Shown: piece by piece, positions 36,036 to 40,919 of the stretch
How positions within the stretch are numbered: position 1 is the stretch's first letter
Layout of the letters: each line of letters starts with the position of its first letter
Origin: Candidatus Krumholzibacteriia bacterium
GTDB lineage: Bacteria; Krumholzibacteriota; Krumholzibacteriia; JAJRXK01
DNA length: 64,000 nucleotides
Assembly: GCA_041484665.1 (NCBI GenBank)
Contig: JBGPIA010000018.1
Span: forward strand, 32,545 to 96,544
Reading direction: 5' to 3'
The notes under the pieces: generated by a model
What the model was told of the DNA's origin: nothing
Databases searched by the model: none
What the model saw: the letters and a program-made list of their open reading frames with translations, nothing else
Position numbers and translations under genes: made by a program

Positions 36036-37424
36036 TCACGCGCAGGGCGCCTCAGGCGGGCGGCGCTCCATCAGATAGAGGCGGCGGGTCGATCCAGGAA
36101 GCGCCACGGCCTCCCGCAGGTCGTAACGTCGCGCGAACGCGCGCTCGAACCCGTCGCGCGTATAGCCGGGGAACACGTCGGCGCGCGTGGCGAGCAGCCG
36201 CTGCACCTGCGGGTCGTCCTTGGGCACGAACTCCATGATGAGCCAGCGTCCCGCGTCGGCCATGAACTCCGTGACGCGCTCGAGGGGAACGTTGTTGCTG
36301 ATGGCCAGGTGGTGGAGCAGCGCCAGCGCCAGCACCAGGTCGGCGGGACCGCGCTCCAGGAGCGCCGTGCGCTCCCGATGGTGCCAGCCCAGGCCCGGGC
36401 TCGGATTGGCCAGATCCAGCACCAGCGGCAGCACCTGCGTCTCCTTCTGCCGCACCACCTCGCGGTAGTTCTTCTCCACCGCCGCGGGGTCCACGTCGAA
36501 GGAGATCACCTCCGCGCCCTGGCGCGCGGCGATCCGGCTGAACGCGCCGGTGTTGGCACCCAGGTCCCACACCGTCGCCGGCCGCACGCGGGCGAGCATG
36601 TCCTCCACCACGCGCTGCTTCTGCTGCAGGGCTGCCGGCGCGTAGCTCTCCTCCTTGGAGTAATCGCCCCACTCGGTTCCTGCCGGCTGCCAGCGCAACC
36701 CGGCCACCGCCCCGCGCAGGTTGTCCAGCAGGCCCAGCAATGCCGTCCTGCTCATGGCGCGGCCTGCCAAACGGACCGGCTTGCCGGCGTAGCGCTGCTG
36801 GCTGCGGGCGTGCAGGTGGACGTGCGTCGCCAACGCGAAGCTCAGGCGGGTGCGCCACGGCAGCAGCCGAGCCGCCAGGTCCAGCGGAATGCCGTCGATG
36901 TGTACGCGCAGCAGCTGTCCAAGGCGGACGTCGCGCCTGCTCATCAGCGCCAGCGGCGCCAGGAAGTGGGTGCAGAACTGCCGGTAGGCCACCCAGGGCC
37001 TAGCTTGCGGCGCTCGCTCGAAGGAGAGCGTGTCCAGGAGCACCGGGCGTCCGCGCGCGAATTGGATGTTGTAGGCGCTGGCGTCCTTGAGCGACATGCC
37101 GCGATCGAGCGCCATGCGCTGGATCGCGAGCGTGGCCAGCGCTGCGTCCCGCAGCTGGCTGAAGCACCACTCGTAGGGGTACGAGATGAACGGCACCCGC
37201 TGCGGAACGAGGACCTTGTACGCCACCGCGGGATCCTCGGGCGCCACGTCGGTCTCTCGGTGCGCAACGAGCAGGCCGGCCTCCGCCAGGTCGGCGTAGA
37301 GGCCACAAGACATCAGGTGGTCGTAGTCGGCCCGGTAGACCTGGTTGACCTGGCGGTAGACCACCCCGTCCCGGGCGAACACGAACCCGCTGGGATCGCG
37401 GAAAGAAGCGGGAAGTTGGCCCAC
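36036..37424 (-). CDS. NoeA-like class I SAM methyltransferase
   Basis: SFRDPSGFVF, ISYPYEWCFSQLRDAA, LKDASAYNIQF, WDLGANTG.FS, LALLHHL, EFVPKDDPQV. Confidence 0.88.
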   Translation of the reverse strand: MGQLPASFRDPSGFVFARDGVVYRQVNQVYRADYDHLMSCGLYADLAEAGLLVAHRETDVAPEDPAVAYKVLVPQRVPFISYPYEWCFSQLRDAALATLAIQRMALDRGMSLKDASAYNIQFARGRPVLLDTLSFERAPQARPWVAYRQFCTHFLAPLALMSRRDVRLGQLLRVHIDGIPLDLAARLLPWRTRLSFALATHVHLHARSQQRYAGKPVRLAGRAMSRTALLGLLDNLRGAVAGLRWQPAGTEWGDYSKEESYAPAALQQKQRVVEDMLARVRPATVWDLGANTGAFSRIAARQGAEVISFDVDPAAVEKNYREVVRQKETQVLPLVLDLANPSPGLGWHHRERTALLERGPADLVLALALLHHLAISNNVPLERVTEFMADAGRWLIMEFVPKDDPQVQRLLATRADVFPGYTRDGFERAFARRYDLREAVALPGSTRRLYLMERRPPEAPCA

Positions 37425-37652
37425 CTACTCTCCCGGGCCGGTGGGTCGACGCCCGTTTGATCGCCGGAAGACCGCAACGATGCGGGCCCAGAAGGTCTTC
37501 ACGGTGAAAAGCGCGCCCAGCAGCCCGGCAACGATCAGCTGCAGGACGTAACTCCCCGTCCCCGGGTCGAGATAGGCCCAGGCATTGGTGGGGGTCAGGA
37601 GCGCGAGGGACGCGAGGAGAAGCAACAGCTTGGACTTGGAGCCAGACCTCAT
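37425..37652 (-). CDS. Small exported/membrane protein with AYLDPGTGS motif
   Basis: Signal peptide, then YLDPGTGS, a hydrophobic helix and a basic tail. Its stop abuts the methyltransferase start. Confidence 0.8.
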   Translation of the reverse strand: MRSGSKSKLLLLLASLALLTPTNAWAYLDPGTGSYVLQLIVAGLLGALFTVKTFWARIVAVFRRSNGRRPTGPGE

Positions 37653-38095
37653 GCGAACTCCGTCGTGGGCCGGAGGTGACGTTGGTTCGGTCGCTGGTCG
37701 TCGCTACGAGGGGCTACGTGTCGGTCAACGGTTCGGTTGTCGCCAGAACGGCTGGGGGTCGGTGAACCGGTCGTCCGTCGCGATGCGGGCGGGGGGTCGG
37801 TCAACGAGCCGATCGCCAGTAGAGGATTTGATCGGTGCATCGGGGGTCGGAGTATCGGCACGGTCGCTGGGGGCGGCCGGTATCAGAGAAGCGCCCAGGC
37901 CCCGTCCCGCCGGTCCCTGGACACGAGGCAGCCCATTGACAAGGGGCGGTCCGATGGGCCATTTTTGATCCTAGCACAGTCAGGGCCGCGGCGGGAACCT
38001 TCCGTCGCGGGGCTGACCGGGTTCTGGCGGCCCGGGAAGCTTGGCAGGTTGGGTCCTGCCCCTCAGGTTGGGCACGCCTGGAAGGAGGTGATCCA

Positions 38096-38143
38096 GTGGG
38101 TTTATCTGATTTCTACGGTCTGGTGGAGGTGACGTACCCCTAG
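38096..38143 (+). CDS. Candidate 15-aa peptide MGLSDFYGLVEVTYP
   Basis: GTG start directly after AAGGAGGTGATCCA; TAG at 38141-38143. Confidence 0.4.
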   Translation: MGLSDFYGLVEVTYP

Positions 38144-38233
38144 AGGGGCTTCCTTCCAAGCGTGCTCGTGGCGCTCGACAAGGGTTGACCCGCTGAAGAG
38201 GGGTGACCCAACGCCACCAGAGACCGACCGTAT

Positions 38234-38274
38234 GGGCCCTGATCCCCACCGTGGGGTCAGGGCCCTCTGTTTTT
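38234..38274 (+). terminator. Intrinsic terminator
   Basis: GGGCCCTGATCCCCAC-C-GTGGGGTCAGGGCCC followed by TCTGTTTT. Confidence 0.8.
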
Positions 38275-38309
38275 CGGCCGGCGCGTGTGGCGTGCAGCCT
38301 CGCAGCCTG

Positions 38310-38420
38310 GCGATCACGTCGCAACGGTAGCCCTCCAGCGTCCTTCCGTTCACGAACTGGACGATGAGGTCGGGCGGAGTGGAGGGCGTCCCAGGCGTGC
38401 TTGCGCGACTCAGACCGCAT
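38310..38420 (-). pseudogene. HEPN/DUF86 toxin remnant
   Basis: MRSESRKHAWDAL, a frameshift, then DLIVQFVNGRTLEGYRCD. Start overlaps the MNT stop; no RX4-6H region. Confidence 0.6.
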
Positions 38421-38718
38421 CGATGGACTCGCGGCTGGCAGTGATACTGGCCTGGAAGTACGGATTGAGCACTGAGTCGGCTGTGACGAGTTCGACCGGT
38501 CGGACAAATAGCGTCTCCAACCCCTCCAGCAAGCCAAAGCAGGCGTCCGCGAATGCAGTCGGAGGCATCGGCTCGAACTCGACGAGAAAACCGAGGTCGC
38601 TGCTCTGCGGATCGAAGCGATCCTGCGTGGCCGATCCGAACACGTCCAGACGCTGCACTTGGTACGGGCGGCACAGTTTAGCCACCTCGGCACTTTTCGC
38701 CTGGATCATCGGCAACAT
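38410..38718 (-). CDS. Minimal nucleotidyltransferase (MNT antitoxin), possibly inactive
   Basis: LCRPYQVQRLDVFGSA...SDLGFLVEF...L.RPVELV...NPYF. The DxD motif reads DLG. Confidence 0.8.
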   Translation of the reverse strand: MLPMIQAKSAEVAKLCRPYQVQRLDVFGSATQDRFDPQSSDLGFLVEFEPMPPTAFADACFGLLEGLETLFVRPVELVTADSVLNPYFQASITASRESIDAV

Positions 38719-38798
38719 CGCGCTCGCCCCTGTCGAAGCGTCACTGGCTCTCGCGACCGTTCGTATCGTCGAGCCGGCCTCGCGATTTCGTCCCTTCT

Positions 38799-40919
38799 CT
38801 ACTCCGCCGGAGCCCCCCGGCTCAAGGGCCCGACCACTGGAAGGGCGGCCGGCGGGGCCGACGACGGGTGAGCGCCGCCGCGCCCCGTGCCGGCGGCTTC
38901 GGCCGGCGGGCCACCACCGGTGCCCGGCACCAGCGCGTCCGGCGCCAGGACGTCCAGCGCCAGGCGCGCCAGCTCGCCCACCGACCAGGCCTGAAAGAGG
39001 CAGCCGCGCGGCGTGTGGGGCGGCTCCGCGTCGGCGATCTCGGGCAAGTGGCCCAGACCCGCCATGCCAAGCTGTGCGAGCAACGGCTCGACGAAGCGCG
39101 CTCGCGCCTCCTGGATGGCGGCCGGCGTCGTTCCGCGCACGCGCAGCCACGCCTCGACGAACGGACCGGCCAGCCAGGGCCAGACCGTCCCCTGGTGGTA
39201 GGCCGCATCGCGCGCGCGCATGTCGCCCTCGTAGTGGGGCGCGTAGCCCGACTCCCCCGGGGCGAGCGACCGCAAACCCATGGGCGTCCAGAGTCGCTGC
39301 TCGACCACATCCACCACGCGGCGTGCGCGCTCGCCCTCCAGCAGCGCAAACGGCAGTCCACCGACGGCGAGGATCTGGTTGGGTCGGACCGTGGCGTCGA
39401 CGGTGCCGCTGCGATGGTCGACGTCGATCACGTCGAAGAGGCAGGTCGTGGCCTCGTTCCAGAAGCGCTCCTGCAGGCTGCGCAGCCCCAGAGCGTAGCG
39501 CTCCTGCCAGCGCTGCGCGCGCTCGGCAGAGCCGCTGAGCGTGGCGCCGATGCGCAAGGCATTGAGCCAGAGGGCCTGGACCTCCACGGGCTTGCCGATG
39601 CGTGGGGTAACCACCCAGTCGCCGATCTTGGCGTCCATCCACGTGAGCTGGACGCCGGGCTGACCCGCGGCGAGCAGCCCGTCGCCATCCATATGGATAT
39701 TGAAGCGCGTGCCGCGTGCGAAGCCCTCGAGGATGCGCTCGACCGCCGTGACCAGCCGGGCGCGGTCGGCCGCGGTCAGCAGGTCGTTGCGCGCTGCCTT
39801 CAGCGCGTCAAAACGACGCGCCGGCCGGGGACGCTTGTGCGCCTCCAGGAAATCGTGGACGGCGATCACGTACCACAGGGACGCGTCCACCGCGTTGAAC
39901 TCCGGTGTCCCGCCCTGCTCGACGAAGCGATTGGGCAACATCCCTTCGGAGACCGCGTCGGCCCAGGCCAGCAGGATCTCGCGCGCGTCCCGCAGGCGGC
40001 CCGTGGCCAGTGTGAGCCCGCGCATCGCGATGAAGGTGTCGCGCCCCCAGTCGGTGAACCACGGATAGCCGGCCACGATGGTGCGACCCGCGCCGCGCGC
40101 CACGATGTAGTCGTCGGCCGCGCGGTGCAGGGGGGTGGGAAAGGACTCGCGGCGGCGCCGCTCGGCGTGCGCCAGCTCGGCCGCCAGCGGGCGGGCAGCC
40201 GCGCTGGCCAGCGCTGCGAGTGTCTGCTCGTTGCGGGCGGCGAGGATCAGCACGGACTCGCCTTCGGACAGAGCGAACCGGAATTCCCCGGGCGAGGCCA
40301 GATCCTCCAGGAAGTCGAGCCCGCGGGCGCGCTCCTCCTCGTAGAGGAAGTTGCGGTACCACGCGGTGCCCTGCGCGTAGGTCCCGTTGCTGCACGCGAC
40401 CACCGCAGGCAGGTCGGCGTAGGGGCGCCACGTCACGCGCTCGCCGTCGGTTTGGGAATCGAAGCGAAAGGCCCCGTTTTCGTGGTGCAACGAATGGGTG
40501 TCGCGGCCCGACAGGAATGGCCGGACCGTGAGCGTCACCTGCACGATGGGCGCGAGAAGCCGCCAGCGGACCACCGTCAGCGGCAGGCCGTGGCGCACGA
40601 AGATCTCTTGCTGTACGCGGGTGCCGTCCTCCAGGCGGAAGCACCAGGTGGGCCAGGGCCCGACCGTGAACGACTCGATCCAGCGTTCTCCGTCCGGGTG
40701 CGTGACGTCCGGCGCGTAGCGTTGCGCGCTGAGGGCGAAGCTGCCGCCGGGAGTCTGCACCGTTGCGTCGAGCCCGTTCACCAGCGCCATTCGGCCGGCC
40801 GGCGGCTGGGTCGCGGTCAGCAGCAACGCGTGGTAGCGGCGCGTGCGGACGAGCCGTTCGGTCCCGCTGGCGAAGCCACCCAGACCGTCGGTCTCCAACC
40901 ACTCCCGTCGCACAGGCAT
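38799..40919 (-). CDS. Amylo-alpha-1,6-glucosidase (glycogen debranching enzyme)
   Basis: REWLETDGLGGFASGT, TRRYHALL, IVAGYPWFTDWGRDTFI, LTWMDAK, YHQGTVWPWL, QAWSV. Confidence 0.93.
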   Translation of the reverse strand: MPVRREWLETDGLGGFASGTERLVRTRRYHALLLTATQPPAGRMALVNGLDATVQTPGGSFALSAQRYAPDVTHPDGERWIESFTVGPWPTWCFRLEDGTRVQQEIFVRHGLPLTVVRWRLLAPIVQVTLTVRPFLSGRDTHSLHHENGAFRFDSQTDGERVTWRPYADLPAVVACSNGTYAQGTAWYRNFLYEEERARGLDFLEDLASPGEFRFALSEGESVLILAARNEQTLAALASAAARPLAAELAHAERRRRESFPTPLHRAADDYIVARGAGRTIVAGYPWFTDWGRDTFIAMRGLTLATGRLRDAREILLAWADAVSEGMLPNRFVEQGGTPEFNAVDASLWYVIAVHDFLEAHKRPRPARRFDALKAARNDLLTAADRARLVTAVERILEGFARGTRFNIHMDGDGLLAAGQPGVQLTWMDAKIGDWVVTPRIGKPVEVQALWLNALRIGATLSGSAERAQRWQERYALGLRSLQERFWNEATTCLFDVIDVDHRSGTVDATVRPNQILAVGGLPFALLEGERARRVVDVVEQRLWTPMGLRSLAPGESGYAPHYEGDMRARDAAYHQGTVWPWLAGPFVEAWLRVRGTTPAAIQEARARFVEPLLAQLGMAGLGHLPEIADAEPPHTPRGCLFQAWSVGELARLALDVLAPDALVPGTGGGPPAEAAGTGRGGAHPSSAPPAALPVVGPLSRGAPAE

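Follow-up and report, generated by a model that had tools for sequence, protein, structure and literature searches.

The window analysed here is a 64,000-nt stretch of contig JBGPIA010000018.1 from a Candidatus Krumholzibacteriia bacterium. On its plus strand an element lies between two minus-strand genes, a divergent small-protein gene on its 5' side (37425-37652) and a convergent nucleotidyltransferase gene on its 3' side (38410-38730, PF01909). The features of the element, including those of the conserved fold described below, are as follows:

37936..37965, plus: sigma-70-type promoter, with -35 TTGACA at 37936-37941, an 18-nt spacer and a weak -10 CATTTT at 37960-37965
near 37972-37973, plus: predicted start site, placed from the promoter
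37973..38274, plus: predicted transcript of ~300 nt, from promoter, terminator and RNA contigs
37986..38010, plus: core of P1, the 5' hairpin, variable in sequence with its structure kept (4/5 pairs changed on both sides)
38011..38042, plus: P2 hairpin, whose loop GGCG (38026-38029) forms pseudoknot PK1
38043..38060, plus: P3 hairpin GGCAGG/CCTGCC, 98.5% paired, whose loop TTGGGT (38049-38054) forms pseudoknot PK2
38075..38078, plus: PK1 3' strand CGCC, ending 3 nt before the extended Shine-Dalgarno sequence (SD)
38080..38097, plus: extended SD overlapping the start codon, with 15 Watson-Crick pairs to the 16S tail (38082-38096, AAGGAGGTGATCCAG), or 18 with wobbles
38096..38143, plus: 15-codon ORF, GTG to TAG, peptide MGLSDFYGLVEVTYP, conserved in frame, length and stop position
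38125-38132, plus: second SD-like motif GGAGGTGA, inside the ORF and also within the 5' strand of the long-range helix
38125..38139, plus: ORF helix 5' strand, in which 38128-38135 pairs with 38211-38218 and CCC 38137-38139 with GGG 38201-38203
38144..38199, plus: variable inner domain, holding CTTCCTTCC (38149-38157), which is able to pair with the SD
38200..38232, plus: ORF helix 3' strand, whose bulge ACCCA (38206-38210) makes the kissing contact of PK2 with the P3 loop
38226-38232, plus: distal arm GACCGTA, which can pair with 38114-38120
38234..38274, plus: intrinsic terminator, with a 13-bp stem (38234-38265), a T-run (38268-38274) and a folding z of -5.4

The initial annotation had placed TTGACA, a 5' hairpin, AAGGAGGTGATCCAG, the ORF, the second GGAGGTGA, CTTCCTTCC and a terminator in this interval, and all of them are there. 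It had also described a self-contained structured RNA that serves no other gene. This is borne out by RNA contigs, by homologues and by the element's own promoter and terminator, and the neighbouring genes of the family are unrelated and occur in either orientation.

Several further features surround the element. The intergenic region at 37660-37860, upstream of the promoter, contains several GGGGGTCGG / GGTCGGTCAAC-like repeats. On the minus strand, 36036-37652 encodes a small YLDPGTGS protein and a kinase-like/methyltransferase fusion, while 38282-38730 encodes a minimal nucleotidyltransferase (PF01909) and then an apparent frameshifted, truncated partner running from 38420 into the terminator. 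By eye we take these downstream frames to resemble a HEPN/DUF86-type partner, and a Pfam search of the two frames gave no match.

A strict consensus promoter scan found no promoter at the element because the -10 CATTTT is weak. Most homologues have their best promoter-like site at about this distance, and a promoter score of at least 9 was reached in 99/116 forward windows versus 16/116 and 5/116 in two reverse-strand windows, so that the weak -10 is supported by its position across the homologous sequences. Six RNA runs match part of the stretch, and four of these, from four studies, were examined over 37400-38800. Each of the four metatranscriptomes contained one RNA contig of 208-241 nt with 95-99% identity, covering the element from 37989 or 38021 to 38228 or 38229 without loose ends; these contigs are unstranded, carry no true ends or level, and have depths that cannot rank abundance. 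No RNA contig covered any other part of 37400-38800 in the four runs, and this lack of cover over the flanks, coding DNA included, argues against DNA carry-over. A second family member is present in one of the runs. The element is an expressed, stand-alone, near single-copy gene for a folded RNA of ~300 bases.

The ribosome-binding site (RBS) was paired with the 16S tail of a class relative, the assembly of the window genome being without its own 16S end. Among the 1416 GGAGGTG sites of this 5.45-Mb genome, the site in the element is the strongest complement of the 16S tail, and AAGGAGGTGATCC has a single occurrence in the genome. Across the family, complementarity of at least 16 nt is found in 90/121 members when wobbles are counted and in 15/121 by Watson-Crick pairs alone. 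The SD of the members also carries a conserved (A/G)TCC extension.

For the ORF, 121 members were parsed from 123 loci, 49 of which came from a pattern that itself contains the in-ORF motif. The first start is in frame with the codons of the helix in 119/121, the other two being mis-anchored 14-codon frames. Among these 119 there are no in-frame internal stops (0/119), versus 46/119 and 84/119 in the other frames. ORF length is 13-16 codons in 116/119 and 20-21 codons in three Myxococcota members. The start codon is GTG in 106, TTG in 10 and ATG in 3 of the 119, with TAG, TGA and TAA all in use as stops; indels within the ORF come in threes, and the spacer varies from 4 to 9 nt. An ORF-blind metagenome pattern served as a repeat test and gave at least 120 matches, 114 of them unique among those listed. 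A P3 hairpin with a complete short frame was present in 92/114 of the unique matches listed; E-V was encoded in 89/92 of these, and the stop fell 3 codons past V in 84/89.

Within this fixed frame the peptide itself varies. Its N-terminal half drifts across members, E is replaced by K in 6/119, and in L096/L097 VEV has become AGG, matched by changes in the helix's 3' strand; the E-to-K and VEV-to-AGG variants retain an SD-like core. The V codon is always GTG in 70 members found by the covariance model, and the +2 codon encodes S, P, A or T through its first base, a base that shows covariation with the 3' strand. Among Krumholzibacteriota the third positions of the helix codons are fixed while the first positions covary with the 3' strand, which indicates selection at the RNA level. 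In distant members some changes after E-V are synonymous, and L434 has one compensated GTG-to-GTT change. The initial annotation had called for the conservation of the peptide to be weighed against that of the RNA. The frame is kept while the peptide varies as RNA pairing permits, and there may be some selection on the peptide.

The structure model comes from an unbiased helix scan of a 22-row alignment. The region folds far below its shuffles (z -4.93, 0/100), and the scan yields P1, P2, P3, a long helix linking the ORF's 3' half with the 3' UTR, plus two pseudoknots. In PK1 the P2 loop pairs with bases immediately preceding the SD, ending 2-4 nt ahead of it; in PK2 the P3 loop pairs with a bulge of the ORF helix and so staples the 5' domain to that helix. 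In the consensus fold the ORF is paired with the 3' UTR from codon ~8 through to its end, and the inner domain from the stop to the 3' strand ranges from ~30 to ~150 nt among homologues. The model comprises 49 pairs, is 92.4% paired and has 26 of its pairs changed on both sides, counts that ignore kinship; it beats shuffles 500/500, with slid controls at 38-47% paired. The ORF helix is 99.4% paired with 3 pairs changed on both sides, and the window copy has one A-C mismatch in it. An alternative helix, GTGGCG/CGCCAC, was rejected as part of the core: it is 87% paired, yet missing in distant members.

The pseudoknots were tested in a 93-row alignment that had been fitted to the nested helices only. 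PK2 has at least 4 bp in 93/93 rows and PK1 in 91/92, and for both the cognate pairing beats partner swaps 300/300. Where a loop varies, its cognate partner gives the better pairing in 7/7 cases for PK2 (the bulge) and 8/10 for PK1. By inspection both pseudoknots recur in most of 17 distant members, with PK1 unclear in L291 and PK2 not parsed in L202. An MI/APC ranking of the same 93-row alignment placed no pseudoknot pair in its top 45, the pseudoknot cores being mostly invariant G-C. The element carries a conserved, covarying two-pseudoknot scaffold.

Members also differ 3' of the ORF helix. Those of the Binatia and Myxococcota type have a conserved extra hairpin inside the terminator stem, with a loop containing TCACC, an anti-SD-like word; they are among the carriers of terminator-stem features L160, L182, L183, L193, L202, L290, L291, L297 and L360. 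Others have a GTCG(A/G)ACC motif at that place.

The initial annotation had instead folded the element into a rod in which sequence after the stop sequesters the SD. The rod is indeed the predicted minimum free energy (MFE) structure of the window copy, about 35 kcal/mol lower than the nested part of the consensus fold (-167 versus -132 kcal/mol), and the two pseudoknot duplexes contribute only about -15 (kcal/mol) in this copy. It is not the conserved fold, however, and the window copy is divergent within its family. The SD helix of the rod is 32% paired and complete in 0/21 other aligned homologues, while the ORF:3' helix is 100% paired and complete in 21/21. The GTTGGGTC/GACCCAAC stem, read as an outer stem of the rod in the initial annotation, is the core of the loop-bulge pseudoknot. 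Nested folding predicts the ORF helix in 55/88 homologues and pairs the SD with changing partners, leaving it mostly unpaired in only 10/88, without a common SD partner. In Krumholzibacteriota the SD and ORF pair with their own post-stop sequence at -33.2, compared with -30.9 for swapped (0/60) and -25.7 for shuffled sequences. In Acidobacteriota the own pairing is not better than swaps (19/60), and SD:post-stop pairing beats shuffles of a member's own sequence at p<=0.05 only in 12/72, 3/23 and 2/23 members. At most, these folding calculations would allow the rod as a lineage-level alternative or a co-transcriptional conformer.

A BLAST search gave a match in 22/60 relatives, one of them spurious; L030 (G031) was rejected as a member, being a 26-nt chance match. 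A covariance model built from 22 sequences found the element in 76/151 genomes of the class (Krumholzibacteriota), 74 with one match and two with a weak second match; these second matches (L100, L101) are without RBS or ORF and were set aside. Neither BLAST nor the covariance model found a second copy in the window genome. No member was found among the genomes searched of families f4 (0/35) and f7 (0/7), where the best 14 candidates per genome were scored. A loose RBS pattern run across the class was matched about as often by its reversed control; on follow-up, 19/20 regions proved to be ordinary genes or chance matches, while L334 added one member to the family. With a tighter pattern, 5/5 model-negative genomes gave no match. 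These searches thus yielded no divergent member among the f4 and f7 genomes covered, and because it is absent there the element is dispensable.

Outside the class, a GTDB-wide pattern search gave 80 loci among the matches listed, 35 of which score at least 69 bits, and eight more loci listed score 21-43 bits with the same anatomy. The members listed belong to Thermoanaerobaculia, other Acidobacteriota, Binatia, Deltaproteobacteria and Bradymonadia. Pattern searches by phylum matched 14/201 genomes in Acidobacteriota (10 real), 31/201 in the phylum to which the Bradymonadia record belongs (13 real) and 7/101 in that of the Binatia record (2 real), and the covariance model found the element in 9/10 and 2/9 genomes of two small phyla. 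Members span Krumholzibacteriota, Acidobacteriota, Myxococcota, Binatia and the two small phyla.

Some of these loci have other features of note. In L009 and L022 an RF-1-domain, GGQ-containing (ArfB-like) gene adjoins the element, lying upstream at one of the two loci and downstream at the second. A link to ribosome rescue was considered and rejected, as such a gene lies beside only 2/49 loci, both from one family, and reflects local synteny. The pattern searches also touched on two other extended SDs. One (L343, G105:C258, near 40366) precedes a 31-codon ORF with WWW and PPPPP runs and is unrelated to this family. The other (L441) precedes a 31-aa peptide with an E-x-x-x-Y end, which to us recalls PqqA precursors.

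Several known RNAs resemble the element in part. A search that covered mostly open-access literature for the motif or a pseudoknotted version of it returned only rreB, and no later paper naming rre genes was found there. According to the accessible text of Hahn et al. (2016/17, RNA Biol 14:1353, PMC5711450), rreB and rreR are small mRNAs, described only in Alphaproteobacteria. rreB is described there as a 165-nt RNA with a ~25 nt 5' UTR, an SD inside a hairpin, and a 14-codon ORF with a GTG start; it co-sediments with 30S subunits, is weakly translated and is stabilised by removal of the start codon. [quoted passage not shown] Like the rre genes as set out in that text, it is a stand-alone transcript with a sigma-70-type promoter, a terminator and variable gene context, the rre ORFs being of 14-18 codons, and it has the rre type of RBS, for which complementarity of at least 16 nt to the 16S 3' end reaching into the start codon is the mark, and a short GTG ORF. 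It differs from rreB in its size of ~300 nt, a 110-125-nt 5' UTR with two pseudoknots, the long helix that its ORF forms with the 3' UTR, and a further SD-like motif in frame within the ORF. The rreB fold, with a short 5' UTR and the SD and start in a conserved hairpin, is not found in the element, where the SD has no conserved partner.

No Rfam family matched in the window at gathering score, even though a published kind of such RNA (rre) exists. The closest is CC2171 (RF01867), a weak match of 28.1 bits (E 7e-4) against a gathering score of 75, driven by the RBS and the terminator-like end; among homologues, 5/18 loci score 24-32 bits. The same RBS occurs in 14/15 alphaproteobacterial matches of the CC2171 type, ahead of a 22-32-codon ORF starting M-S. 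CC2171-type RNAs differ in having a ~15 nt 5' UTR without the P2/P3 domain, and they score at most 14.6 bits with model R1. Membership in CC2171 was rejected on both grounds, the window score lying far below the gathering score and the 5' pseudoknot domain being absent from CC2171-type RNAs. The loci L309-L322 comprise Rfam CC2171 and sub-threshold relatives, and the peptide of L322 starts SSGICG like that of the Krumholzibacteriota member L013. CC2171 is a Caulobacter sRNA that, in the accessible part of the report, is Northern-validated in Methylorubrum (bioRxiv 10.1101/2022.01.24.477521), and the accessible text of another study (PMC4117421) describes two earlier Caulobacter ncRNAs as translated, leaving them unnamed.

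ARAGORN found no tmRNA in the window, the genome's own tmRNA lying elsewhere. In tmRNA a short ORF is framed by pseudoknots with a helix near the stop, and the element is alike in this respect; it differs in being without a tRNA-like domain and in that ribosome entry would be by SD and start codon. Judged by sequence, the element is rre-like in its RBS and ORF and represents a structurally distinct family, not rreB, rreR or CC2171.

We favour, with moderate confidence, the reading that the element is an rre-type ribosome-docking mini-mRNA built on a two-pseudoknot scaffold, in which the working unit is the RNA together with the act of translation. Binding to 30S is plausible since rreB shares this RBS and co-sediments with 30S. 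The SD, the start codon and ~7 initial codons would form a closed single-stranded loop of ~40-45 nt, about one ribosome footprint. A 30S subunit would dock there through 15-18 bp over the whole free 16S tail, with weak GUG initiation as for rreB. Elongation would then have to pull apart the over-long SD duplex and open the ORF helix that PK2 locks. The stop lies 3-4 codons past GAG GTG, and the second SD-like motif would there stand 6 nt from the P-site codon (5 at initiation). The unwound strands would be free for the SD-locked rod conformer or for decay, so that the ribosome-bound state and the lifetime of the RNA would report ribosome elongation.

An alternative that we regard as unlikely, though worth serious attention, is that the product is a functional peptide of 13-16 aa with a C-terminal E-V-[AV]-[SAT]-[PSL], the RNA structure serving to keep its synthesis low and conditional. 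The strict conservation of frame and length is what such a gene would show, as are the synonymous third-position changes after E-V in distant members, the compensated V codon of L434 and a Ser at residue 3 that is coded by both AGY and TCN. RreB and RreR are each conserved within their clades, yet they are also unalike and unstructured (in the accessible text of PMC5711450), and in the element the highly variable N-terminal half, the replacement of E by K, the VEV-to-AGG change matched in the 3' strand and a +2 residue that follows base pairing all speak against a conserved peptide function.

We give distinctly less credence to a dedicated ribosome cage or storage RNA, in which a 30S or stalled 70S is gripped by its whole 16S tail within the pseudoknot ring, so that the anti-SD is shielded or ribosomes are parked in stress. 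It would account for the strongest anti-SD complement in the genome preceding a throw-away peptide, and for the conserved (A/G)TCC extension, which should be kept from pairing as long as the start codon occupies the P site at normal spacing. The element also assembles from metatranscriptomes where neighbouring mRNAs do not, but the depth of contigs is no ranking of abundance. An open frame ending in a conserved stop would be superfluous in a pure cage, and 20-fold overexpression of rreB left growth unchanged, with ribosomes far outnumbering rreB (accessible text of PMC5711450).

The initial annotation had offered a type I toxin-like mRNA, and a translationally locked toxin with an antisense antitoxin, like timP or aapA, now appears very improbable. 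The accessible part of the timP study (PMC11228461) describes mutually exclusive folds of that mRNA, with a long structured 5' UTR whose pseudoknot marks the translatable form. The element too has a pseudoknot beside its RBS and alternative folds, with an SD-locked MFE structure in the window copy, and an apparently broken MNT-HEPN-like pair lies next door in the genome. TimP, however, is a membrane protein that is toxic and has an sRNA as its antitoxin, and neither trait is seen in the element. The peptides of 13-16 aa are too weakly hydrophobic for this role, with a GRAVY of 0.48 in the window copy, a family median of 0.17 and 5/119 above 1.0. No reverse promoter is conserved at the element (5/116 and 16/116, as above), it is near single copy, and 22 and 1 pattern matches in viral contigs included no member. 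A leader-peptide attenuator of a downstream gene shares the parts (short ORF, alternative folds, terminator) and is scarcely tenable, because the ORF closest on the downstream side shares the strand of the element at 28 and lies on the opposite strand at 19 of 47 loci, its Pfam families are unrelated, the downstream gene in the window is convergent, and the ORF has no regulatory codon run.

Beyond the docking mini-mRNA reading, we suggest more tentatively, and as the less probable step, that the family may form a class of ribosome-binding RNA in at least six phyla, in which a ring closed around the RBS by the two pseudoknots is sized for one ribosome, the entire 16S tail is gripped first at initiation and then, via the in-ORF SD, at termination, and a single round of translation switches the RNA from an open to an SD-locked fold or back. 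Modelled this way, it might be the most elaborate form of an rre superfamily, and if so the RNA would be a translation-activity switch or ribosome cage rather than a message.

The rre mini-mRNAs have posed a question of function since 2016. The extended-SD micro-gene design is seen here far outside Alphaproteobacteria and inside a covarying tertiary fold. Its helices are separable from the peptide by mutation, and a compact pseudoknotted RNA of 250-300 nt, predicted to grip 30S over 15-18 bp, lends itself to toeprinting and cryo-EM. Should the RNA prove to be the active part, the family would add to the ribosome-associated regulatory RNAs a new kind, one that Rfam 15 does not contain.
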